In this document: positions 2 through 34,881 of the stretch, one piece after another | How the letters are laid out: each line of letters begins with the position of its first letter | How positions within the stretch are numbered: the stretch's first letter is position 1 | NCBI GenBank assembly: GCA_038842485.1 | Contig: JAWBSP010000004.1 | Coordinates: 1 to 50,296, forward strand | Length of the DNA stretch: 50,296 nucleotides | Reading direction: 5' to 3' | Origin: Candidatus Hadarchaeales archaeon | GTDB lineage: Archaea > Hadarchaeota > Hadarchaeia > Hadarchaeales > JAWBSP01 | Program-made: the position numbers and the translations under genes | Notes under the pieces: model-generated | The model's database searches: none | Told to the model about the DNA's origin: nothing | The model's input: only the letters and a program-made list of their open reading frames with translations

Positions 2-2824
2 AGGGTGAGGGTTAGGGACGGGGCCGGCAACGAGAATGTCTCTTCCGTCTTCACGTTCGAACTCTTGATTCCGCCCTCCTCCCAGGTCTCCCCCATCTCC
101 CCCTACTGGTGGAGGACCTCCCCCATCCCCATCAGCGTTTCGGCCTCGGATGCGGACGGCACCGTCACTAGGGTAGAGCTCTGGTACCGCTGGTCCCCCG
201 ACAACTCCAGCTGGGGCTCCTGGATTCTCTACGACTACGACACCACTCCTCCCTACTCCTTCAGCTTCATGCCCCCGAGCGGCCAGGGATACTACGAGTT
301 CTACTCCAGGGCGAGGGACAACGCCGGCAACTACGAGTCCCCGCCACCCCAGGCGGATGCCAGGTGTGGGCACGACACCACTCCACCATCCGCACCAAGC
401 CTGCTGCAGCCCGAGGAAGGTGCAACCGTGGGCGTGGCCCCAACCTTCAGCTGGGCAACCGTTCCCGATCCCTCCGGTGTTACCTATGAGTTGGAGGTGG
501 ACAACGAGCCGACCTTTACCGATCCCCTCGTCTACCGAAAATTGGGTCTGACGGAGAATTTCCACATATGCGAGAATTCCCTGGACATTGGGACGTACTA
601 CTGGCGGGTGAGGGCTGTGGACGGGGCGCAGAACGTGGGAGACTGGTCGGAGAACCGATGCTTCACGGTCGGCAGGTTCTGGTACTCCTTGGAGAGCTGG
701 CAGGTCCCAGCTTCGGCCGCTCCTGCGTGGAGAACGGTCGAAGCTTGGAGCGTGGTTTCAGCCCTCCCCGCTTGGAGGACGATCGAAGCCCACAGTGTTG
801 AGGTTTCAACCCTCTCCGTATGGGCGTCCCTTGAGTGGTGGAGTGGAGAGGCAATGTTCCCGGGATGGGTTCTGGTGGACTCTCGGGGAGGGAGAATGCG
901 GGCCCCCATCGGCTTTGATCTCTCCCTCTCGCCAGCGACCGGTGAAGTCAGCCAAGGAGGGAGCATCAACGTGAACATCAACGTGACCAAGTCGTATCCG
1001 TCATATAACCGCACGGTTGCGCTTGAAATCCGGAACCTCCCGCCTGGGGCCTCCGCGAGCTTCTCTGGCGTGCTCCAGGGGGTACCCGACTTCTCCCTCA
1101 CCCTAACGGTTTCCACGAGCTCCACCACCCCACTTGGGACATATCTCATTCAGGTAGTCGCTGGGGATGGGGTGGTAACCTTAACTAAAATCTTTGCCCT
1201 CACGGTACGGCCTCCGCCTCCTCCGCCACCACCAAAGTATCCGCCGGTTTCCAGGGTGAAGCCCATTTCACCCTTCTGGTACTCTTCCCTGCCGGTTACG
1301 GTTGAGGCGGAGGCGAGCGATAGCGATGGGGCGGTGGTAGGAGTCACGCTGTACTACAGGCATTCACGGGACAATTCGGCTTGGGGCTCTTGGAAACTCT
1401 GGGGCGAGGATAACAGCTACCCATGGGTCTGGAGTTTCAGTCCTCCCGAGAAAGATGGGTACTACGAGTTCTACTCGGTAGCAGTTGACAACGACGGGCT
1501 GGTGGAGAATGCCCCCTCCGTAGCGGATGCCTCACTCGGCCTGGATCTCACAGCTCCCCCAGTCCCCACTCCGCTCTCGCCGGTGGGGGGAACCCTTGTG
1601 GGTGCGAGAGTAACACTGGTCTGGCAGGCGGTTCAGGACCTTTCAGGAATAGAGGGGTACGAGGTGGAGGTGGACGAGAATGAGCAGTTCCCGTCTCCCC
1701 TCCTTTCCACCTTCGTCAGGGGAACCTCTCTCGAGTTCGACCTTCCCGCCGAGGGGAGGTTCTTCTGGAGGGTGAGGGCGGTGAATGGGTCGGGTCTTTC
1801 CTCGCCCTGGAGCACCAGCGCGACCTTTATCTCCATCTCCAGACCGCCAATCCAGCAGACCCGGACCTTCCTTTCTCCCTTCGCGCCAGCGGACTTCGAT
1901 TTCACCCCCTACGAACCCTACTTCATAAGGAAGGTGACGCTGGTTCCCGCAGGAGCGCTGGAGCAGATGACCGTTTCTGTATTCGAGTTCAAGGCGAGGG
2001 AGTTCACTGAACTCTTTAGCTGGCTTCCAGAGCCCGAGTACATGTACACAGCTTGGCTCTCCTTAGATGTGCCCAAGACCCTCGTTCAGCGGACGGAGGT
2101 GAGTTTCCAAGTTTACAGGTCCTGGCTCGAGGAACGAGGTCTGGACGAGAACACGGTGGTTCTTCAGAGAGTTTACCTGGGAGAGTGGGAGAATATACCC
2201 GCCGAGCTTGTTGGCTGGGACGAGGAGAGGTTCTACTACAAGGCCACCTTCTCAGGCTTCTACGACATCCTTTCATGCTCGGCTTCCAAGAAGGCAGCGC
2301 CCCCACCACCTCCGCCACCCCCACCACCAGTGCCCAAGCCGCCCTACCTCCTCTACGCCTTCCTAACCATCTTGGGAGGATTTGGGATAGGGTTCGCGTA
2401 CTTCTTATACCAGAGGAGACTCGCCATCCCGCCGGCAGTTCCGGTGGAGAGGATCGCAAGGGCTGAGATACCGCCTGCCCTCAGACCAACCGCCCTACCA
2501 GCCATTTCACTTGAAAAGCTGGGTCCCAAACCAACGCCGGAGATCCTCCCCATACCCACCAGGCTGTCCCCGCTGAAGGTTCGTCCAGTGTTTGCCAGGG
2601 CAGTACCGGTTGGGCAAGTATTGGAGGCGATCAAGAGGGTGAGGCCGATAATACCCCTAGAGAGGGTCGCAAAGGTAGCGAAGCCGCCGGTCCCGCCTGC
2701 CGTTGAGCTGGAGAAGTTGGCGAAGGAGGTCAAGCCCTTGGCGGTGAGGGAAGTGAAGGGAAAAATCCAGGAGCCCTCTGATGTTCTCTCAAAGCTGAGG
2801 GAACTCACCGAAGGCAAACGATAA
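2..2824 (+). CDS. Large membrane-anchored surface protein (5' truncated): duplicated Ig/FN3-like modules, Trp-rich repeats, PGF-pre-PGF-like domain, poly-Pro linkers, TM helix, cytoplasmic tail
   Basis: Frame open from the window edge; FN3-like YYWRVRAV/FFWRVRAV motifs; SFQVYRSWLEERGLDENTVVLQR resembles PGF-pre-PGF; hydrophobic YLLYAFLTILGGFGIGFAYFLY followed by QRR. Confidence 0.8.
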   Translation, partial: RVRVRDGAGNENVSSVFTFELLIPPSSQVSPISPYWWRTSPIPISVSASDADGTVTRVELWYRWSPDNSSWGSWILYDYDTTPPYSFSFMPPSGQGYYEFYSRARDNAGNYESPPPQADARCGHDTTPPSAPSLLQPEEGATVGVAPTFSWATVPDPSGVTYELEVDNEPTFTDPLVYRKLGLTENFHICENSLDIGTYYWRVRAVDGAQNVGDWSENRCFTVGRFWYSLESWQVPASAAPAWRTVEAWSVVSALPAWRTIEAHSVEVSTLSVWASLEWWSGEAMFPGWVLVDSRGGRMRAPIGFDLSLSPATGEVSQGGSINVNINVTKSYPSYNRTVALEIRNLPPGASASFSGVLQGVPDFSLTLTVSTSSTTPLGTYLIQVVAGDGVVTLTKIFALTVRPPPPPPPPKYPPVSRVKPISPFWYSSLPVTVEAEASDSDGAVVGVTLYYRHSRDNSAWGSWKLWGEDNSYPWVWSFSPPEKDGYYEFYSVAVDNDGLVENAPSVADASLGLDLTAPPVPTPLSPVGGTLVGARVTLVWQAVQDLSGIEGYEVEVDENEQFPSPLLSTFVRGTSLEFDLPAEGRFFWRVRAVNGSGLSSPWSTSATFISISRPPIQQTRTFLSPFAPADFDFTPYEPYFIRKVTLVPAGALEQMTVSVFEFKAREFTELFSWLPEPEYMYTAWLSLDVPKTLVQRTEVSFQVYRSWLEERGLDENTVVLQRVYLGEWENIPAELVGWDEERFYYKATFSGFYDILSCSASKKAAPPPPPPPPPPVPKPPYLLYAFLTILGGFGIGFAYFLYQRRLAIPPAVPVERIARAEIPPALRPTALPAISLEKLGPKPTPEILPIPTRLSPLKVRPVFARAVPVGQVLEAIKRVRPIIPLERVAKVAKPPVPPAVELEKLAKEVKPLAVREVKGKIQEPSDVLSKLRELTEGKR

Positions 2825-2827
2825 GCC

Positions 2828-2854
2828 TTTAAACTACTACTACCACTACTACTA
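2828..2854 (+). promoter_or_regulatory. TATA-like TTTAAA followed by an (ACT)n-like tract up to the start codon; candidate operator
   Basis: tttaaactactactaccactactacta immediately before ATG 2855. Confidence 0.45.
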
Positions 2855-2986
2855 ATGCAAAGGATCAAGTGTCACATTTGTGGCTATGTCTGGGCCTACA
2901 AGGGCTCAGGAAGGTTTTACGCCACCTGTCCCCGCTGTCTGAGGAAGGTTAAGCTAGCAGACCCGGGGGGAAGACATGGCGCTTAG
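2855..2986 (+). CDS. Small C4 zinc-ribbon protein, 43 aa (below ORF-track cutoff)
   Basis: Translated by hand: MQRIKCHICGYVWAYKGSGRFYATCPRCLRKVKLADPGGRHGA*; CxxC...CPxC; overlaps the MinD start; matches the N-terminus of NrdD in this window. Confidence 0.8.
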   Translation: MQRIKCHICGYVWAYKGSGRFYATCPRCLRKVKLADPGGRHGA

Positions 2987-3821
2987 GAGGCGGAGAGGGA
3001 TAGTTTTGGGCGTTTTCTCGGCAAAAGGGGGAGTGGGTAAGACCACCACCGTGGCAAATCTGGGTGCAGCCCTCGCGCAAAGGAAGAAAGGGAAGGTCAT
3101 CATCGTGGAGACAAACATGACCGCCTCAAATTTGGGGCTTCACCTGGGCGTGGTTGATCCACCCGTGACGGTTCAGGATTTGGTGATGGGGAGGCTGAAG
3201 GTGGAGGAGGGGATATCCAAAACCGAGTATGGGCTTCATCTCCTCCCCGGATCGATTGCCTTCACGACCGAGGTGGGATCGGTTGATTTGAGCCCCATGC
3301 TGGAGAGTCTGAGGAAGAAGTACGATATCATCATCCTCGACTCGGCCCCCGGTTTCGCTCCCGAGGTAACTTCCGCCATGAGGGCTTGCGACGAGGTTTT
3401 GGTCTGCTGCCAGCCCCAGATACCGGCCATTGCTGGAACCCTTCAGAGCATGAGGGCCCTAGAGAGGATGAAGATCCCCCTGCTTGGGGTGGTGCTGACT
3501 AGGGTGACGGGGAAGAGGTATGAGGTATCGACCTCGGAAATAAGGAGGACTCTGGGCTGGCCAACCTTGGTCGAGATCCCCGAGGATGACATGGTTCCGG
3601 AGAGCATAACCAGGGGTGTTCCCGTCGTTCTCTACGCCCCCAACTCGCCCGCGGCCCAGGAGTACCTAAGGCTCGCTAGGATGATTCTGGCTCGCCTGAG
3701 GGCTAGGGCTGGTAGGAGGGCGCGACGGAAGAGGGTTCGGGTGGTTCGAAGGGTGAGGACCAAGGGGAGGGGCCGGGGGGTAAGAGTTCCGGGCCCCGCC
3801 TTCAGGCCGGTTTTCGAGTGA
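2976..3821 (+). CDS. minD: MinD/ParA-family ATPase with Arg-rich C-terminal tail
   Basis: Deviant Walker A SAKGGVGKTT, IILDSAPG, IPED..V..S...GVP, SPAA..Y..LA. Confidence 0.85.
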   Translation: MALRRRRGIVLGVFSAKGGVGKTTTVANLGAALAQRKKGKVIIVETNMTASNLGLHLGVVDPPVTVQDLVMGRLKVEEGISKTEYGLHLLPGSIAFTTEVGSVDLSPMLESLRKKYDIIILDSAPGFAPEVTSAMRACDEVLVCCQPQIPAIAGTLQSMRALERMKIPLLGVVLTRVTGKRYEVSTSEIRRTLGWPTLVEIPEDDMVPESITRGVPVVLYAPNSPAAQEYLRLARMILARLRARAGRRARRKRVRVVRRVRTKGRGRGVRVPGPAFRPVFE

Positions 3822-10548: not shown

Positions 10549-11767
10549 CTATCTCCCTCATCACCTTTTTGAGGATTTCAACCCCCCTCTTTCTATCCTC
10601 CCAGTCCAGCAGGAAGCTGATGGAGGCTCTGCTTGTCATCATCTCCACGATGTTTATTCCCTTTTCCGCGAGGGGTTGGGTGAGCTTTGCAATCATGCCG
10701 GGAGTATCGATGAATTTCTCGCTCTCGCAGACGATTAAGGCGAGCCTGCCCGTCTTGGTCACGGATTTCATGTGCTTTTCCCTCAGCACTACTTGGTGGA
10801 GGGCCCGCTGGGCTTCCTCCCCCTGCTTCTCGTCTACGTAGATGGAAAAGGAACGGGGCCCGATTGAGACCCCAAAAATGTTTATCCCCCTCCTGCTTAG
10901 GGGTGAGGCCGCCTTGTAGAGGATTCCTGGCGTGGTCTGCATGTTCTCCCCCACCACGGTTACCATGGTGAGGGGATTTTCGTGAAGTCTAACCGACGCG
11001 GAGGCCTGCGTTGGTCCCACTATCTCCGTCCCCTTGGCAGATAAATCGCTGTGCCTAATGTTTATAATTCTGGCCCTCAACGCAGGGTCCTTGAAGTTGA
11101 GGGCGCGGGGGTGCATCTTTCCCATTCCAAACCGTGCGAGGTCCCTGAGTTCCTCGACCGTGATGGTGGGTAAAAGCTTTGCCCCCTTCACCGAGGAGGG
11201 GTCGGCGCTCATGATCCCGTCCACGTTCGTGACAATGATGGTCTCCGCTTTGAGGCATTGGCTCAGGACGAAGGCCGTGATGTCGCTACCGCCCCGGCCG
11301 AGTGTGGTCAGCCTCCCCGAGGCATCCTTCCCTAGAAAGCCGCAGACCACGGGGATCTCCCCCCTCTCAAGCATGGGTTCTAGGAATCTCTTGACTCTCT
11401 TCCTAGTTTCCTGCAGGTTCACTCCCGCGTTTCCTGGGGTGGAATCCGTGATGATAGGCCACTCTTGGTTTTCAGGGGTGATGGCGGTCGATTTGAGACC
11501 TAAGCTTCTGAGGGCAGCCGAAAACAATCTGGCAGAAATTACCTCCCCCATACCCATTATCGCATCCAGTTCCGCCGCTGTGATTTTTCCGTCCGTCGCC
11601 TCTCTGCTCAGGGAGATTAGCTGGTCGGTGGTGTCCCCCATGGCCGAGACCACCACCACTACCTTCTTCCCCTTTTCGATCTCCTTCTTCACGCATCGTG
11701 CAGCTCGCAGTATCTTCTTTCCGTCAGCGAGCACCGCACCGCCAAACTTCACTATCAGCCCAGCCAT
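10538..11767 (-). CDS. lysC: Aspartate kinase with ACT domains
   Basis: IVKFGG, VVSAMGDTTD, TLGRGGSD, two C-terminal ACT repeats. Confidence 0.95.
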   Translation of the reverse strand: MAGLIVKFGGAVLADGKKILRAARCVKKEIEKGKKVVVVVSAMGDTTDQLISLSREATDGKITAAELDAIMGMGEVISARLFSAALRSLGLKSTAITPENQEWPIITDSTPGNAGVNLQETRKRVKRFLEPMLERGEIPVVCGFLGKDASGRLTTLGRGGSDITAFVLSQCLKAETIIVTNVDGIMSADPSSVKGAKLLPTITVEELRDLARFGMGKMHPRALNFKDPALRARIINIRHSDLSAKGTEIVGPTQASASVRLHENPLTMVTVVGENMQTTPGILYKAASPLSRRGINIFGVSIGPRSFSIYVDEKQGEEAQRALHQVVLREKHMKSVTKTGRLALIVCESEKFIDTPGMIAKLTQPLAEKGINIVEMMTSRASISFLLDWEDRKRGVEILKKVMREIGEV

Positions 11768-13038: not shown

Positions 13039-14366
13039 GTTCTCTGGACTTCAGCGACGGCCTCCTCCAGCAGGTCCAGACCAAGGCTCAGCTCCTCCTC
13101 CTCGATGATGAGGGGTGGGGCAATTCTTATGGTCGAGTTTCCCCCCCTGAAGACGAGAATTCCCTTTTCTAGACCCTTCCTTACCACCAGATCTCTCTCC
13201 TCGGGAGCAGGCTTCTTCGTCTTCTGGTCTTTAACGAACTCGATGGCTAGCAGCAGTCCCTTGCCCCTTACGTCACCCACTATCTCGTATTTTTTCCATT
13301 CCTCCATTCTTCTCAGGGCCTTGCTGCCCAACTCTGCTGCTCTCTCGGTTAAACGTTCCCTCTCCAGAATCTTGAGACCCGCGAGTGCGGCTGCGCAAGC
13401 CAGCGCATTACCGCCGAAGGTGTTCGCGTGGGCTCCCTTTTTCCAGTCCATCACCTCTTTCCTCGCCACAATTGCTCCTATGGGTACCATGCCTCCGCTC
13501 AGGGCCTTTGCCAGACAAACGATGTCGGGAATCACGCCCCAATGCTCGATGGCAAGCATCTTGCCTGATCTCCCAAGCCCGGTTTGAACTTCGTCTGAGA
13601 TGAAGAGCCAGCCATGCTCTCTGCAGAGCTCGGCAATCATGGGGAAGAATTCTGGGGGAGGAACAATGTACCCGGAGGTTCCCTGAATGGGTTCCGTTAT
13701 CACGGCTCCTACCTCCGTGGGCGGGATGGTGGTACGCAGAGAGCGTCTGAGGTACTCAACGCAGAGAAAGTCACAGCCGGGATAGCTCTGTCCGAAGGCA
13801 CACCGGTAGCAGTAGGCAAAGGGCGCGAAATGAACTCCGGGCACGAGGGGGGAGAACCTTTCCCTGTGAACAAAATTGCTTCCCGTCAGGCTGAGGGCAC
13901 CCATGGTTCTTCCGTGGAAGGCACCAGTGAAGGAGATTATGCCCGCTCTCCCTGTGTGCCATCTAGCGCACTTGAAGGCCGCTTCAACTGCCTCCGTTCC
14001 CGAGTTACAGAAAAAGACACTTTTCTCAAAGTTTCCGGGCATGATGCTGGTGAGCTTCTCGGCCAGCTCCACCTGGAGTGGGTGATAAAAGTCTGTTCCC
14101 GGGACGTGGCCCAGCATGCCCGCCTGTGTTCTAACGGCTTCCACGATTTCCGGGTGGGAGTAGCCATAGTTTAAAACGAACATCCCCGACGAAAGGTCGA
14201 GAAAAGTGTTGCCGTCGACATCAATAAGGTAACAACCCTCCCCCCTTTCCCAAACGATTGGATCCTCCCTCGTGCAGGAGGGGGAGATCACTTTCTGGTC
14301 CCTCTCAATGATTTTCCTCGCTTTTGGACCCGGTATCTCCGTGAGAACTCTTGGACGCTTTCGCAT
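13032..14366 (-). CDS. Class III PLP aminotransferase (acetylornithine/4-aminobutyrate aminotransferase family)
   Basis: NSGTEAVEAA, AFHGRT, EPIQG, DEVQTGLGRSG, AKALSGG, TFGGN. Confidence 0.9.
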   Translation of the reverse strand: MRKRPRVLTEIPGPKARKIIERDQKVISPSCTREDPIVWERGEGCYLIDVDGNTFLDLSSGMFVLNYGYSHPEIVEAVRTQAGMLGHVPGTDFYHPLQVELAEKLTSIMPGNFEKSVFFCNSGTEAVEAAFKCARWHTGRAGIISFTGAFHGRTMGALSLTGSNFVHRERFSPLVPGVHFAPFAYCYRCAFGQSYPGCDFLCVEYLRRSLRTTIPPTEVGAVITEPIQGTSGYIVPPPEFFPMIAELCREHGWLFISDEVQTGLGRSGKMLAIEHWGVIPDIVCLAKALSGGMVPIGAIVARKEVMDWKKGAHANTFGGNALACAAALAGLKILERERLTERAAELGSKALRRMEEWKKYEIVGDVRGKGLLLAIEFVKDQKTKKPAPEERDLVVRKGLEKGILVFRGGNSTIRIAPPLIIEEEELSLGLDLLEEAVAEVQRTC

Positions 14367-29684: not shown

Positions 29685-30900
29685 GCAGCTCCTTCGCCCT
29701 TTCCAGCGTTACGTTCCCCTCTTCCAGCATCCTGCGTGCTATCTCCTCCGCTCGCTCCCCCGTCGCCCCCGCCGCTAGGGCTAGCGCTCTCGCGTGCAGT
29801 TTCATATGCCCTTTTTGGATTCCCTCCGAAACCAGCGCCCTCAGCGCGGCTAGGTTCTGGGCTAGCCCCACGCAGGCCATGACCTCCGCCAGCTCCTTGG
29901 CACTCTGTATCCTCAGGATCTTCCTGCAAATTTTTGCCACCGGATGATGGGTGGCCCCGCCCACCGTCCCCACCGCTAGAGGGAGCTTTATCTTCCCGTA
30001 CAAGTCACCTCCTTCTGTTTCCCTCCACTCCGTGAGGGGATGGTATCCTCCTAGAGAGGCGTAGGCGTGGGCACCAGCCTCAATGGCCCGGGTGTCGTTT
30101 CCCGTTGCTAGGGCCACCGCCACAATCCCGTTCATGATTCCCTTATTGTGGGTGGCGCACCTGTACGTGTCCCTCTTGGCAATCTCGTTTGCCCGCACGA
30201 TGTTGCGAATCGTCTCCTCCCCCAGAACTCCCCTTGGAACGGTTGCCTCGGCCTCCGCGAGCCTGCGGTCGGCGAGGTTGGAGACCACGCGCAGAATCGC
30301 CCTTCCTCCCGTGAGTTCCTCCAGCTTGGGGGCCACGGCCTCACACATGGTATTAACGGCATTTGCCCCCATCGCGTCCCTCACGTCCACGAGGAGATGA
30401 ACCGCAAGCCCCCCCTCCAAGGTTCTAACCTCCACATCCCTCGCTCCTCCCCCCACCTTGAGGAGTGGTGGGTTCGTTCTGTTCGCCTCCTCCAAGAGTT
30501 CCTCCCTGTGGGACAGAATGAGCTGGGAAGCCTCCACAGGCTTTTGAACCTCCACTAGGTGAACTTGTCCTATCATGAGCGGCTCTGAGGCCGAAGCCCT
30601 GAACCCTCCCCCCTCCCTCACCATTTTGGCCGCGTTTGAGGCCGCCGCCACAACCGAGGGTTCCTCCGTGACCATGGGGATGAGATAGTCCTTCCCGTTT
30701 ATGAGGAAGTTGGTGGCGATCCCGAGGGGTAAGGAAAAAACTCCAATCACGTTCTCTATCATTCTCTCGGCATGGGAAAGGGACATGGGGGTCCGAAGCT
30801 GCTGTACCTCCTCTTCCGTCAGACCAGCGAACCGCTTCACCACCTCCAGCCTTTCCTCGAGCGGTAGCTTGTGAAAGTCAGGGAGCCTTGAGGTTTCCAT
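29671..30900 (-). CDS. mvaA: Hydroxymethylglutaryl-CoA reductase, class II
   Basis: MIENVIG, EEPSVVAA, DAMGANAVN, THNKGIMNG, GIQKGHMKLH; start at ATG 30900. Confidence 0.95.
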   Translation of the reverse strand: METSRLPDFHKLPLEERLEVVKRFAGLTEEEVQQLRTPMSLSHAERMIENVIGVFSLPLGIATNFLINGKDYLIPMVTEEPSVVAAASNAAKMVREGGGFRASASEPLMIGQVHLVEVQKPVEASQLILSHREELLEEANRTNPPLLKVGGGARDVEVRTLEGGLAVHLLVDVRDAMGANAVNTMCEAVAPKLEELTGGRAILRVVSNLADRRLAEAEATVPRGVLGEETIRNIVRANEIAKRDTYRCATHNKGIMNGIVAVALATGNDTRAIEAGAHAYASLGGYHPLTEWRETEGGDLYGKIKLPLAVGTVGGATHHPVAKICRKILRIQSAKELAEVMACVGLAQNLAALRALVSEGIQKGHMKLHARALALAAGATGERAEEIARRMLEEGNVTLERAKELLELA

Positions 30901-30952
30901 CGTAGTGTTGCGTCGCACAGATAAACTCCTAAAACCGCGAGCCTGTTACAGG

Positions 30953-31606
30953 ATGATTCATCCAGACGCTGTGAAACTGGGAAGGGCTCTGAGAGGGATG
31001 GATGGAATCAAAGCGGCCGTGGTTTTTGGCTCAGCCGCCAGGATGGAGGACTTCGTTGAAGGGCTGAGCGATATAGATGTGCTGGTGCTCCTAGAACGCA
31101 GGAACCCCAAGGTGGAGAGGGTAATCAGAGAGAAAGCCGCTGCGCTCGGAATCTCACCGGCCATCATGACCATGCGGGAGTTCGCTCGCGGTCTGCGGGC
31201 GGGAGATCCGGGCCTCCTGCTCATGTGCAGAGGCAGGCCCCTGTGGAGGTCGGACTGCTTTGAGTCCCTTAAAAAGGAAGCCCGCGTGACCCCCTTCACG
31301 CTCAAAAGGTTGCTTCAGCTGGCGAGGTGTGCCTTATCCATATCCCTGCGGGAACTCGACTCAAACCCCCCACAGGCTCTTTCCTCAGCGTATCACGCCG
31401 CTAGACACGCCCTGAGAGCACGCATCCTGAAAACCAAGAAGGTGCTGATGGATTCAAACGAAGAGATTCGACTGGCTCTCCCCGAGAAGGAAAGAGAAGA
31501 ATTCGAGAGCTTTCTGGAGGCGAGGAGAAGGTATGCGACCATAGAGAGAAAAGAGCTCAAAAGCCTCATCCGCTTGGCGCGCAGAATTATCGATAGAGAG
31601 AGCTGA
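30953..31606 (+). CDS. Minimal nucleotidyltransferase (MNT) fused to a HEPN-like domain
   Basis: VFGSAAR.ED..GLSDIDVLV; C-terminal ALSSAYHAARHALRA helical HEPN-like region. Confidence 0.8.
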   Translation: MIHPDAVKLGRALRGMDGIKAAVVFGSAARMEDFVEGLSDIDVLVLLERRNPKVERVIREKAAALGISPAIMTMREFARGLRAGDPGLLLMCRGRPLWRSDCFESLKKEARVTPFTLKRLLQLARCALSISLRELDSNPPQALSSAYHAARHALRARILKTKKVLMDSNEEIRLALPEKEREEFESFLEARRRYATIERKELKSLIRLARRIIDRES

Positions 31607-31650
31607 CATGGTTTTCGCTCCAACTATAACATCCTCGACTACTTCGACGC

Positions 31651-31966
31651 GTGTCACCATAGTAACACACACCGCTTACAACGAGATAGGAATAGTAACA
31701 TCGGCACCTGTTTTTAAAGCGAGAAAACAGAGATGTGTTACTATAGTAACATCAACCCATCTGTCATCTCCCTGCAGTTGGGGAACTACTAGCACGTGTT
31801 ACTAAGTAGCATTACAGTCCAAGAGAGAAGAGAAGGGCGAAATGGTGTCGTGCTGGTAACAGCGGAACTCCCAGCTGACTCTAGTTCACACCGGCTTCAG
31901 ATGTTTAAAAAATCAGTCACTTTTACAGCCTCGGCCAACCCGATGCCGATGTTACTATAGTAACAC
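31651..31966. repeat. Cluster of palindromic TGTTACTATAGTAACA sites
   Basis: Perfect copies at 31736-31751 and 31950-31965; 2-mismatch copy 31652-31667; degenerate copy 31796-31811; half-site 31692-31702. Confidence 0.9.
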
Positions 31967-31995
31967 ACCTCAATCGAAAATTATATGGGAGTAAT

Positions 31996-32436
31996 ATGAA
32001 AATGGAAAGCAGAGGGATTGAGCCTCTTGCCCTGAAACTTCTGGCGGGGATGATCCTGCTAGCAGTGGGATTGGGGGCTGGGATTACCCTGTACCGGAGA
32101 GCGGGGATGTCCGTTGAAAGTGCTCTGAAGTTTGAACTCAGCCTTGACCAAACTTCTTGGAGTCTTTCCAGACCCGAAAATGAAAATCGGCTGACAGTGT
32201 CCGTGAGCATCGAATCCGTGCTGCAGGACTATCGGGGAACCGTTAGCCTCTCAGCCGAGGGGCTCCCGGCTGGTGTTCAAGTCTTCTTCAGCCCCTCCTC
32301 GGGGACGTGCCCCTTTAGCTCCTCCATGACGGTGGTGGTCTCCGCTCAGGCACCCTCAGGAACCCATACAATCACAGTGAAGGCCACGGGGGATGGGAGC
32401 GTAAAGAGCAAACCCTTCACGCTGACCATCCAGTAG
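31996..32436 (+). CDS. Pilin-like protein: class III-type signal peptide plus Ig-like domain
   Basis: SRG|IEPLALKLLAGMILLAVGLGAG; LPAGV...FSPSSG..PFSSSMTV.V....PSGTHTITVKA. Confidence 0.7.
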   Translation: MKMESRGIEPLALKLLAGMILLAVGLGAGITLYRRAGMSVESALKFELSLDQTSWSLSRPENENRLTVSVSIESVLQDYRGTVSLSAEGLPAGVQVFFSPSSGTCPFSSSMTVVVSAQAPSGTHTITVKATGDGSVKSKPFTLTIQ

Positions 32437-32783
32437 TGATGTCTGTCCTTAGGGCGGTGGCCACCTGTGTCCTAGCGGCCATGGCGGTCTCTCTGGGGAC
32501 GCTGGGACTCAGAACCCTCGATACCGCCAGAAAGCACCAGCTCACCCTGAAGGGGGGTAGCCAAATCCTCTCGGCCGCCCGAACCTGTCTCGCCACAGGG
32601 AATGAACAGCAGGTGGAGATAGAAATTTACTCCCCCATCACGCTCCTGGAAAATCGAATCCTGATTGGAGAAACGCTCTACGGGGAGCTGGAGGGAAGAT
32701 TCCTCTCTAGGGTTGAACTGGCCCCCGGGAAGCACCGGCTTAGGGTAAGGCTTGAGAACGGCGGGCTGTGGGTGGAGGGATGA
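32436..32783 (+). CDS. Small N-terminal-TM protein (minor pilin-like)
   Basis: N-terminal hydrophobic helix, amphipathic helix, beta-rich tail; overlaps neighbours. Confidence 0.6.
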   Translation: MMSVLRAVATCVLAAMAVSLGTLGLRTLDTARKHQLTLKGGSQILSAARTCLATGNEQQVEIEIYSPITLLENRILIGETLYGELEGRFLSRVELAPGKHRLRVRLENGGLWVEG

Positions 32784-33151
32784 AGGAGCTCGTCCACAGT
32801 CTGTTCGTCCTGCTCGCCCTTCTCTCCCTCTTCCTGCTGGTGGCCGCCTCCTATCAGGCGTATCAGAGGAGTCTGGAGCTGGCTAGGATGAGCGATGTGG
32901 CCTGTTTGGTCGCCACCCAACTCTGTATGGGGGACCATGCAGGGATCCTTGATCCTAGGAACCTTTCCCTCGAGGGAACCTATGTGCTTGGGAGGGAAAA
33001 CTTCAGGTTCGGGATAAGGGTGTTTACCCTCGATGGACAGGAAATAGGTTCCGAGACCCCGGCCCCAGAGAGAAGGATCGAAGTGGAATTTCCCGTCCTG
33101 CTGGGGGAAACCCCCGCAAGGCTGAAGGTGATGGTTTGGAGAGGGGGCTAG
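32780..33151 (+). CDS. Small N-terminal-TM protein (minor pilin-like)
   Basis: ELVHSLFVLLALLSLFLLVAA; C-terminal PARLKVMVW; ATGA overlap. Confidence 0.6.
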   Translation: MKELVHSLFVLLALLSLFLLVAASYQAYQRSLELARMSDVACLVATQLCMGDHAGILDPRNLSLEGTYVLGRENFRFGIRVFTLDGQEIGSETPAPERRIEVEFPVLLGETPARLKVMVWRGG

Positions 33152-33570
33152 CCGACATCCTCACGCTTTGCTTCATCTTTGCTGCCTTGGTCTCAAGCAC
33201 CACCCTGCTGCTCCTGTGGGCGGATCTCCCTCTCCGCCAAGCCAGAGAAAGGCAGACCCAGCTTCGCTGTCAGCTCCTCTACTTCGCCCTCACGAACTTC
33301 AGACCCGAGAACTCACTCACAACCCTCCCCCTCGCGGCCGCCGAGAAGCTTCTGGGAATCCGGGAGTGGAGCGGTTTGGAGAACTCGGTGCTGGAAGTGC
33401 TCCGGTTCTGCGCGGGTGGTCCTTCCAAGGTCTCCTTCCAGCTGGAGAATGGGAAACTAGAAATCACGTCCCAGGAAGCTTGGAAATCCTCCTTCTGGGG
33501 GAGGCTCTCTCTCTTCCCAGCATGGGAGAACCACCCCCTTCAGCTGGAGATGGAGGTGAAGCTTGGCTAG
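33136..33570 (+). CDS. Pilin-like protein with class III-type N-terminus
   Basis: MERG|LADILTLCFIFAALVSS. Confidence 0.6.
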   Translation: MERGLADILTLCFIFAALVSSTTLLLLWADLPLRQARERQTQLRCQLLYFALTNFRPENSLTTLPLAAAEKLLGIREWSGLENSVLEVLRFCAGGPSKVSFQLENGKLEITSQEAWKSSFWGRLSLFPAWENHPLQLEMEVKLG

Positions 33571-34195
33571 AGCATCCGCCCCCCTTCTCGCCGTCTTTTT
33601 GCTCGGGATGCTCCTTCTCCTTCTTACTGCCTCCAGCATGTTGAGGGCGGGATACGAGCTGGAAACGAGGGAGCTTATTCTAAAGCAGGCCTCGCTCACG
33701 GCGAATTCTATCCTGAAGTCGGTGGAGTCAGAACTCAACTCTTATTTGTACTGGGCTTCCTCCTCAGTCATGTACGAGGTGGGATGGGAGGAAGGGAGCG
33801 AAAACGAGGTGGTGGAAGGTATCCTAACTAGGGCTATGATGCTTGAAAACGCGTGGAAATTTTCAAACGTGCAACTCGAACTCCATCTTGAAAACCTAAG
33901 GGAATTCTTGCACTGGCTCCCCGATGGTAGCTTGGAGATCCGGGGTTTCCTGCCAGCTTCAGCGAAACACGTGATGGGTCCCGAAGCCTTCGGTCTGAGG
34001 CTGGAGGTGAGCGGCCTCCCGCGCTTTCGCCGCTTGCATCAGCTGGCACTGCGACTCTCAGAACTCCACCTCACCCCCAACCTTATCGAGCGGCTCAACG
34101 AGAATCTCAGGGCCGAGGGACTGCAGGTCGAGGTCTTGGGAGGAACGATGATCATTCGGGACCTGTGGGCGCATCCCGTACTTGTGAAACGGTGA
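33563..34195 (+). CDS. Pilin-like protein with class III-type N-terminus
   Basis: MARA|SAPLLAVFLLGMLLLLL followed by a long helix. Confidence 0.6.
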   Translation: MARASAPLLAVFLLGMLLLLLTASSMLRAGYELETRELILKQASLTANSILKSVESELNSYLYWASSSVMYEVGWEEGSENEVVEGILTRAMMLENAWKFSNVQLELHLENLREFLHWLPDGSLEIRGFLPASAKHVMGPEAFGLRLEVSGLPRFRRLHQLALRLSELHLTPNLIERLNENLRAEGLQVEVLGGTMIIRDLWAHPVLVKR

Positions 34196-34220: not shown

Positions 34221-34646
34221 CTATGACTTCAGTTTCCTCGCAAACACCTCTATCGAAATTCTCTTCACGTTCGTTTTATCGAAGTGCAAATCATCACTAA
34301 TCAGGGACTTCTCGCCAAGTCTTCTCATCACAGCTAGATGAAGTGCATCGCGGGGTCTTAACCCAAACTCCTCCATTTCCCTTGTCATTCTCCAGACATC
34401 GGCATACTCGACTGACACAATGTCCAAGCCCGGGAGCGCAAGCGCGGCTCTACAGACTTCGACGGCTGTCCGAATATTGCTTCGGTGCATAACGGCCCAG
34501 GCCAACTCGTCCAGCGTTAAGCAACAGGTCTTAGCCTTTACCTTGGGTAAATTTGCTAAGATGTGTCGGGCTGCGTTGCCCAGTTCACCGGCTTCAAGGG
34601 CCGCGAACACGAACACGTTTGCGTCGAGATAAACCATACGCACCAC
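34221..34646 (-). CDS. vapC: VapC/PIN toxin
   Basis: VYLDANVF, TLDEL, PRDALHLA, ISDDLHFD. Confidence 0.92.
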   Translation of the reverse strand: MVRMVYLDANVFVFAALEAGELGNAARHILANLPKVKAKTCCLTLDELAWAVMHRSNIRTAVEVCRAALALPGLDIVSVEYADVWRMTREMEEFGLRPRDALHLAVMRRLGEKSLISDDLHFDKTNVKRISIEVFARKLKS

Positions 34647-34881
34647 CCATCACTTCCTCGTAGAGTCGGTCACCCCATTTGAGTTCCGACGCTTTCCCCC
34701 CGAATTTCGTTGCTATTTTCACAAAAGTCTGGATGGGATTCCGAGGAGCTGGGGACAGAATCATCCTATCCCCTTCCACCTCAAGCAGAACGGTATCGGA
34801 AGGCTTTATTCCGAGTCTTTCCCTTATCGGCTTTGGTATTACCACCTGTCCCTTTGGGCCCACCGTGGTTTTGAGTTTCAT
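34594..34881 (-). CDS. vapB: AbrB/MazE-family antitoxin (VapB)
   Basis: TTVGPKGQVVIPKPIRERLGIKP. Confidence 0.92.
   Translation of the reverse strand: MKLKTTVGPKGQVVIPKPIRERLGIKPSDTVLLEVEGDRMILSPAPRNPIQTFVKIATKFGGKASELKWGDRLYEEVMGGAYGLSRRKRVRVRGP

Follow-up and report, generated by a model that had tools for sequence, protein, structure and literature searches.

A 16-bp palindrome at a predicted Hadarchaeota replication origin and its lineage-specific clusters in intergenic DNA

We analysed a stretch of 50,296 nucleotides from Candidatus Hadarchaeales archaeon (the window; contig C4 of the source genome, G000), in which an intergenic spacer of 389 bp, at positions 31,607 to 31,995, carries an array of copies of the 16-bp palindrome TGTTACTATAGTAACA. 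The motif has its old home in a predicted origin of replication on another contig and the array is missing at the same place in a congener. The window array thus represents a lineage-specific satellite cluster derived from the origin palindrome, and copies are dispersed over about 16 such places in the genome. On balance, we lean towards reading it as a lineage-specific cluster of putative high-affinity sites for an origin-linked, probably dimeric DNA-binding protein, the primary and ancient site of which would be the palindrome at the centre of the origin. A preliminary description of the window had suggested a centromere-like or origin-associated multi-site locus. This held for the motif, which occupies many sites and is associated with the predicted origin through origin recognition boxes (ORBs) and, in one genome, GC skew, but the window array is itself neither an origin nor a centromere. 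No earlier description of the palindrome element was found in the literature that we searched for the motif strings and for Hadarchaeota origins. The exact motif strings returned no paper, and a search on the replication origin or ORB of Hadarchaeota or Hadesarchaea showed no Hadarchaeota origin among the best 10 of 1,092 matches.

The palindrome is part of a predicted origin module

One palindrome copy of G000 (contig C13, 10784-10799) lies directly 5′ of a small conserved gene, here termed cand, and is kept in all three genus genomes (G000 and the same-genus G001 and G002). Seventeen Hadarchaeota loci were collected by a search for relatives of cand, and in nearly all 17 a variant of the palindrome stood just upstream of the gene, for example TGTTACAATAGTAWCA, TGTTACATATGTAACA or TGTACACCCATAACA. 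After a fixed gap the palindrome was followed by a canonical ORB, for example GTTCCAGTGGAAATGAAGGGGT. The distance from the end of the palindrome to the TCCA core of this ORB(+) was 27-28 nt in 17 of 19 Hadarchaeota loci, with 33 nt in one and no ORB in another. This spacing held across several families, the motif itself consisting of the half-site TGTTAC and a variable 4-bp centre. Sixteen of 18 loci also had an inverted ORB(-), at 28-184 nt on the upstream side of the palindrome, and the spacers between palindrome and ORBs were A/T-rich in most families. In G000 the arrangement is exactly symmetric (C13 10737-10848), running ORB(-), 28 bp, palindrome, 28 bp, ORB(+), with the ORB cores 72 bp apart. 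A pair of inverted ORBs is the accepted hallmark of an Orc1-type origin. The Hadarchaeota boxes fit the archaeal ORB consensus CTTCCAGTGGAAACGAAAGGGGT as listed in Table 2 of PMC4153887. A loose ORB pattern matched five places in G000, all outside the window, and the full canonical box occurred only at C13 10827. A reading of the window array as the origin itself was therefore dropped, with the only canonical ORB on another contig and the four looser matches likewise outside the window.

We also checked the position of the module against GC skew. In G041, a genome of another family with a 1.03-Mb contig, the global minimum of the cumulative skew (1-kb bins) fell at 791,000, next to the module at 791,044-791,108 (palindrome at 791,044, ORB at 791,086). 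Mean skew changed from -0.061 over the 100 kb to the left to +0.084 over the 100 kb to the right. The orc1 orthologue of this genome is 38.5 kb off and a paralogue is 12 kb away on the other side, indicating that the skew minimum marks the module and not the initiator gene. We thus predict that the palindrome module is the Hadarchaeota chromosomal origin (oriC). A region upstream of orc1 in G000 (C13 7290-7871) was considered as a second origin and rejected, as the region is coding.

Copies are confined to the origin in some families and dispersed in others

The G000 assembly comprises 943 kb in 27 contigs and is 88.9% complete. A search allowing up to 3 mismatches returned 34 copies in about 16 places, none with more than 2 mismatches and 23 of them perfect. 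Thirty-two of the 34 were fully intergenic, compared with a non-coding share of 9.7% by our own codon-usage-scored gene calls, a scorer which missed cand and an archaemetzincin-like gene. The corresponding binomial value is 1.6e-30, to be read with the copies not being independent, since they fall in about 16 places. On C13, 16 copies are spread from 3.8 to 25.2 kb. C18 carries seven copies arrayed at a spacing of 52-64 bp and a further, solitary one; three copies were counted on C11 and three on C4, two on C8, and one on each of C10, C23 and C27. Alignment of the G000 copies gave the extended form R-TGTTACYATRGTAACA-Y. The flanks outside this extended form, which adds 1 bp on either side of the 16-mer, were not conserved, and neither terminal repeats nor target duplications were found at the copies. 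The end of conservation at about 18 bp argues against a transposon or a miniature inverted-repeat element (MITE), and the Y1 transposase family of the RAYT/IS200 type (PF01797) had no match in G000.

Within the genus, the core GTTACYATRGTAAC occurred 28 times in G001 and 14 times in G002, with species-specific flanking consensus sequences (CTGTTACCATGGTAACAG and GCGTTACTATGGTAACGC, respectively). By contrast, 37 of the 41 genomes of the order had no copy within 1 mismatch of the G000 16-mer. Copies at orthologous places in the genus were found around the flavodoxin-aaRS-cand cluster, at the Rnf operon and inside an ApbE-fusion gene, in species whose proteins are about 60-80% identical. The preliminary description had proposed comparing the motif's genomic clustering with GC skew and the cdc6/orc genes, and checking its conservation in relatives. 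Copies were indeed concentrated around the predicted oriC, with 16 of 34 within 21 kb in G000, 10 of 28 in 18 kb in G001 and 6 of 14 in 10 kb in G002, but the window array is on another contig. The motif was kept in both congeners; the array was absent from the orthologous place in G001. The copy in the ApbE-domain gene (692 aa; C13 23653-25731) lies about 500 nt from the start in all three genus genomes (G000 C13 25186-25240; G001 locus L015 14301; G002 locus L017 12237), its frame reading by eye as V-T-[I/M]-V-T.

Copies in other families were counted with the pattern TGYTACNNNNGTAWCA. Three genomes (G041, G042 and G043) had exactly 2 copies each genome-wide, one between the ORBs and one just after cand, and G045 had a single copy, at the origin module. 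G044 had 15, made up of 13 copies of TGTTACACGTGTAACA and 2 of TGTTACATATGTAACA. At the loci fetched from this genome, the 13 TGTTACACGTGTAACA copies had identical flanks, giving TTTGTTACACGTGTAACAAA, and a second palindrome class, TTTGTTATATATATAACAAA, stood beside them in the same intergenic regions. The multi-copy intergenic arrays of G044 adjoin genes for HMG-CoA reductase, orc1, a radical-SAM protein and cand, and the 3′ end of the TyrRS gene. Dispersed intergenic copies were thus present in G000, G001, G002 and G044 and absent in G041, G042, G043 and G045. Taken together, these counts indicate an ancestral state of one or two copies, located at the origin module. With 15 copies in G044 and the many copies of the genus set against one or two elsewhere, genome-wide spread happened at least twice, in the G000 genus and independently in the G044 lineage. 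In the genus this spread had its centre at the predicted origin; the window array, some of whose members have decayed, is among its products.

The array in the window

A scan of the window located perfect copies of TGTTACTATAGTAACA at 31736-31751 and 31950-31965 and a copy with 2 mismatches, TGTCACCATAGTAACA (repeat family D1), at 31652-31667; like the other palindrome elements of the array, they carry no strand assignment. No further match with up to 3 mismatches occurred in the window, where shuffled sequence gave an expectation of 0.00 (100 shuffles). These copies, and the lack of a full one elsewhere in the window, agree with the preliminary description, and the extended inverted repeats and degenerate copies that it listed were also recovered. 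The repeats form arms of 24 nt (31730-31753 and 31948-31971, 96% complementary) and 22 nt (31692-31713 and 31937-31958, 86%). A right half-site with its flank, the 11-nt ATAGTAACATC (repeat family D2), is the same at 31692-31702 and 31743-31753. The degenerate copies, read from the sequence, are a decayed copy at 31797-31811 (TGTTACTAAGTAGCA, with 1 central base lost and 1 mismatch) and a remnant at 31846-31861, in which only the right half-site GTAACA is left (6 mismatches to the full motif). The region is AT-richer than its surroundings, as had been claimed, with a GC content of 0.516 in 31001-32000 compared with 0.58-0.59 in the adjoining bins.

The spacer that holds the array runs from the stop of a nucleotidyltransferase-like gene on the + strand (30971-31606) to the start, at 31996, of five overlapping small + strand genes (31996-34195) that make up a prepilin-like operon. 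The products have a hydrophobic N-terminal helix, the first beginning MKMESRG-IEPL..., and none of the genes matched a Pfam family. The last perfect palindrome ends 30 nt 5′ of the ATG at 31996. Between the two, an A/T-rich AAAATTATAT followed by GGGAG on the + strand (31977-31991, read from the sequence) is a possible TATA box and ribosome-binding site of the operon. Orthologues of the operon are present in G001 and G002. In G001 the operon starts 56 bp from a divergent HMG-CoA reductase gene (locus L026), with neither a nucleotidyltransferase gene nor a palindrome before it; in G002 it begins at a contig end. Among contigs from four DNA runs, an 871-nt contig from an independent hot-spring metagenome of 2017 carried the array letter-identical, with 0 differences; the runs otherwise gave cross-mapping of other palindrome loci and are uninformative on mobility. 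Rfam gave no match for 30500-33000 at E ≤ 1, and only tRNAs for eight other site-bearing loci. Just 3′ of the operon the window has a gene pair (34221-34881) for a PIN-domain protein and a MazE/AbrB-type antitoxin.

A candidate for the binding protein

A homodimeric binder is suggested by the dyad, which is perfect and combines two kept half-sites with a 4-bp centre that is free to vary. The gene cand (C13, approximately 10846-11337; about 162 aa) is encoded directly after the origin palindrome, and in four other families the only two palindrome copies of the genome stand on either side of it. Full-length orthologues (E ≤ 1e-36) were present in 17 of the 41 genomes of the order, and the calculated pI was at least 9 in 18 of 22 family members. 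The predicted monomer had a mean pLDDT of 95.5. Modelling also gave a symmetric homodimer with a score of 0.56, compared with 0.01 for the best control, and the runs agreed in at least 96% of contacts with a partner pLDDT of at least 89. The mark for a homodimer was reached by 20 of 30 proteins solved as one-chain pairs and by 1 of 23 solved as single chains. This pass may be explained by the likeness of the model to Cas2 dimers. Foldseek returned nothing in the PDB at E ≤ 0.001, no Pfam or NCBIfam family was found, the sequence profile matched no PDB chain at E ≤ 0.1, and the Atlas model resembled ChrB_N/PaaX_M clusters with a TM-score of 0.5-0.58 by query. Position, high pI, confident fold and predicted dimer speak for the cand product, which we regard as a weak candidate for the palindrome-binding protein; it is conceivable in this role, yet probably not the binder.

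A bolder extension of the origin-linked reading strikes us as unlikely. The dyad 27-28 bp from the ORB would be a third, so far undescribed element of Hadarchaeota origins, and its binders would be a new Cas2-fold family of small, basic, dimeric proteins that includes the cand product. This pair of protein and site would, in some lineages, have been amplified into arrays across the genome, together with paralogous pairs made of further palindrome families (B to E, below) and their own Cas2-like genes. If true, archaea would have a new class of nucleoid proteins, sequence-specific and coupling the initiation of replication to gene expression, in this case that of pilus genes.

Weighing the origin-linked reading

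Under the reading that we favour, and by analogy with the ucm/UBP system of Sulfolobus discussed below, the bound factor would act at the origin between two Orc1-bound ORBs, where MCM is loaded. The same factor would also occupy the dispersed intergenic sites, as a sequence-specific nucleoid-associated protein or as a regulator. In the window, three to four occupied sites just 5′ of the core promoter would modulate the prepilin-like operon. For the window array we infer promoter control or nucleoid-protein occupancy.

Several observations weigh against this reading. On a 150-kb contig of G001 the skew minimum fell at 48 kb, at orc1 and 15.6 kb from the ORB pair; the skew curve of this contig was flat from 0 to 48 kb. 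The 17 loci of the cand search had no orc1 gene closer than 6 kb to the module, and orc1 is never adjacent to the module, the distance being 3.5 kb in G000 and about 15 kb in G001. The 28-bp spacers between palindrome and ORBs are not A/T-rich in G000. The fold of the cand product is a generic ferredoxin-like one (Cas2, CutA, ACT-like; best Z 7.5 by VIA-align), searches of Pfam, NCBIfam and folds recognised no DNA-binding domain in it, and in family f2 a match to cand was present in 0 of 6 genomes. One f2 genome, G003, keeps a palindrome-like TGGTACATTTGTATCA, a 28-nt gap and an ORB(+) with an unrelated gene downstream, indicating that the pairing of palindrome and ORB is older or firmer than its link to cand. 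The high identity of the copies counts here as well: 23 of the 34 in G000 are letter-perfect and the 13 fetched from G044 share the same 20 bases, which could reflect recent copying rather than selection. Finally, several proximal copies keep similar distances to start codons, as the sites of an ordinary transcription factor would.

Some features of cand and its neighbours were recorded alongside. In the G003 locus (L118 2087-2443) the palindrome is overlapped by an open reading frame that, judged by eye, looks like a homing endonuclease of the LAGLIDADG type (GYLEAKGSF), and the downstream gene looks like one for a small heat-shock protein. At the predicted origin of G041 (locus L036 6687-7502) a 271-aa gene without a Pfam family follows the second palindrome directly 3′ of cand; this stretch matched no G000 protein in tblastn. 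Distant relatives of the N-domain of the cand product are fused behind a nucleotidyltransferase domain in two proteins, P0044 and P0046. The nucleotidyltransferase of the window was considered as a relative of the cand product and rejected, showing no likeness (hhalign probability 0.4%).

Promoter geometry and an ordinary regulon

Genes beside the copies were unrelated to one another: pyruvate phosphate dikinase, a pyrimidine operon, the Rnf operon, a ROK kinase, thioredoxin reductase with PdxT, a radical-SAM gene, two prepilin-like operons and tRNA-His. The proximal copy ended 16-86 nt before the start codon of 10 genes, with 40-43 nt at four genes and 16 nt at two. A distance of 40-43 nt would fit a site just 5′ of the BRE/TATA elements of leaderless genes. 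On C18 a perfect copy (14153-14168) ended 36 nt before the tRNA-His gene (14205-14277) and 60 nt before a divergent gene of 648 aa. No recognised DNA-binding domain was found in the genes adjoining sites, to which this search was limited. At one of the sites, on C27, a full-length gene for a TIP49/RuvB-like AAA+ protein (1690-3054; PF06068, E 1e-138) has a palindrome copy 18 nt past its stop.

These distances, including that to the tRNA-His gene, are what an ordinary regulon would show. The palindrome would then be the operator of an autoregulated dimeric factor, possibly the cand product, with a promoter overlapping the origin, and the window array would be a multi-site operator of the pilin operon. 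The copy 5′ of cand, shared by the three genus genomes and most other families, is in line with autoregulation, and the varying central 4 bp between kept half-sites are as expected of a dimer on two half-sites. Of the 15 intergenic regions with sites, however, 4 are flanked by convergent genes; the genome-wide figure is 57 of 447. Regions without promoters are thus not avoided, which argues against an ordinary promoter regulon. From the largest array, with up to 7 copies, it is 325-668 nt to the nearest start codon; the neighbouring genes have no common function, the letter-perfect identity of most copies would be unusual for operators, and the palindrome holds its 27-28 bp spacing to the ORB also in a locus that lacks cand. 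We therefore consider this explanation improbable overall, though one to be taken seriously. A pilin-operon operator had been offered as an alternative in the preliminary description. It gains from the last copy, 30 nt before the start, and from the similar distances at other genes, and loses from the convergent regions.

A centromere-like role

The preliminary description had likened the array to parS. We regard a parS-like centromere, or a set of condensin-loading sites at which origin-proximal palindromes load a segregation or chromosome-organising protein, as very improbable. In favour of this role, three genomes have their copies gathered around the predicted oriC, the copies are highly identical, as parS sites are, and the G044 motif TGTTACACGTGTAACA is one position off the quoted parS consensus TGTTNCACGTGAAACA (14/15). 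The G000 motif, on the other hand, agrees with TGTTNCACGTGAAACA at only 10 of 15 specified positions, and ParB_N (PF02195) had 0 matches in G000 at E ≤ 0.01, in a genome that is 88.9% complete. Four genomes of other families have only 1-2 copies. The window array lies on a contig without an ORB, is absent in the congener G001 and counts among about 16 dispersed sites. Bacterial parS sites are not known to avoid coding DNA; the G000 copies do avoid it. A parS-like centromere is thus not supported as such, whereas its weaker form, a multi-site element for protein loading with a tie to the origin, holds.

Two other known types of site were considered and rejected. The motif resembles clostridial Rex boxes, but the Rex-type repressor family (PF06971) had 0 matches in G000. 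TrmB-type regulators gave nine weak winged-helix matches in G000, none of them beside a site.

Further palindrome families and selfish spread

Besides this motif, G000 has no fewer than four multi-copy palindrome families, which form intergenic arrays with 4-7 copies each: family B (TGCGAACGTTCGCA, 15 copies), family C (TGCACACGTGTGCA, 13 copies), family D (TGCGCACGTGCGCA, 7 copies) and family E (TGTAACACGTGTT[AT]CA, 13 copies). Their arrays include C9 10314-10611, C11 4690-5328, C3 1634-2224, C16 10818-11027, C18 3481-3727 and C12 1625-1945. The B arrays repeat about every 71 bp, and their spacers are alike. Families B, C and D were also detected in the congeners, with 11 copies in G002 and 1 in G001, and in none of the three genomes of other families that were searched. 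A basic Cas2-like family of about 80 aa (YVIYDFxGKAPRxLY...) is represented by five open reading frames, two of them degenerate, at C11 4655-4885, C23 8478-8717, C3 1714-2226, C9 10129-10299 and C2 35656-35814, all within 58 nt of a B or D array. On C11 and C3 the palindrome lies within the Cas2-like coding sequence, where it reads as A-N-V-R or A-H-V-R. The small Cas2-like gene and its array look like a gene-plus-array module. CRISPR-like arrays were considered and rejected: the repeats are too short, their spacing is irregular (52-64 bp) and the spacers of the B arrays resemble each other.

Such modules bring up selfish spread, in which the palindromes were copied into intergenic DNA, possibly in connection with the small Cas2-like genes, and have no function at most places. 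The copy numbers agree with this, at 34, 28 and 14 in the genus, 15 in G044 and 1-2 in four genomes, as do the absence of the window array in G001 and its decayed copies. The further families (15, 13, 7 and 13 copies), the position of all five Cas2-like frames and the B-array units, which look like diverged tandem duplicates, point the same way. The palindrome itself, however, has no terminal repeats or target duplications and no conservation beyond about 18 bp, and no Y1 transposase was found. The array was also letter-identical in the 2017 metagenome, and copies at orthologous places were kept across three species with proteins about 60-80% identical. Selfish spread is accordingly a decidedly improbable account, in our view, and sites for an origin-linked protein remain the reading that we prefer.

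Comparison with known systems

The predicted Hadarchaeota oriC resembles canonical archaeal origins in its two inverted consensus ORBs, its mostly A/T-rich spacers and, in one genome, its position at the skew minimum. Canonical origins (ORB, DNA unwinding element, ORB) have orc1/cdc6 adjacent, whereas in Hadarchaeota orc1 is 3.5 to 38.5 kb away. The Hadarchaeota core is also very compact (72 bp in G000), with a conserved palindrome in place of the unwinding element.

With bacterial parS the motif shares the 16-bp palindrome, the outer arms TGTT..AACA and near-identical copies concentrated near the origin. It differs in that no ParB was found, the centre is different in G000, copies are intergenic and often promoter-proximal, and the ancestral number is 1-2. 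Annotating such palindromes as parS or as simple operators calls for caution. Another bacterial parallel is CtrA, which in Caulobacter acts as a global regulator and binds the origin too. In both cases one factor would bind inside the origin and at many promoters, but CtrA belongs to another domain of life and has a different motif and protein family.

The closest known system, by analogy, is ucm/UBP. As described by Dhanaraju et al. (2025, PMC12141716), oriC1 of Sulfolobus has an 11-bp ucm midway between ORB2 and ORB3 that is required for origin firing and is bound by UBP, a basic protein of 111 aa that contacts MCM. The same account gives 329 ChIP peaks for UBP, intergenic-enriched and without a simple relation to transcription, and reports ubp only in Sulfolobales and Desulfurococcales, its authors asking about analogues in other lineages. 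Accessory sequence elements of archaeal origins are almost unexplored, and no characterised case other than ucm/UBP is known.

Both systems have a short motif between the inverted ORBs of an Orc1-type origin, and dispersed, intergenic-enriched copies beside genes of unrelated function (ucm/UBP as given in PMC12141716). UBP is small and basic; the cand product, a putative binder only, is likewise basic. The differences lie in the site and its distribution. According to PMC12141716 the ucm has 11 bp and UBP binds it as a monomer, whereas the Hadarchaeota element is a dyad of 16-18 bp that some lineages keep perfect, and its distance from the ORB is fixed at 27-28 bp. Most lineages have the element once or twice, and its dispersal in Hadarchaeota is lineage-specific, with 1-2 copies in four genomes and 14-34 in others, compared with the 329 Sulfolobus peaks of that paper. 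Lineages in which the site is single-copy and others in which it recurs at dozens of intergenic places amount to natural 'experiments'. The palindrome thus offers a testable analogue of ucm in a different, uncultured phylum, as a 16-bp site with a fixed ORB geometry at a predicted Hadarchaeota oriC.

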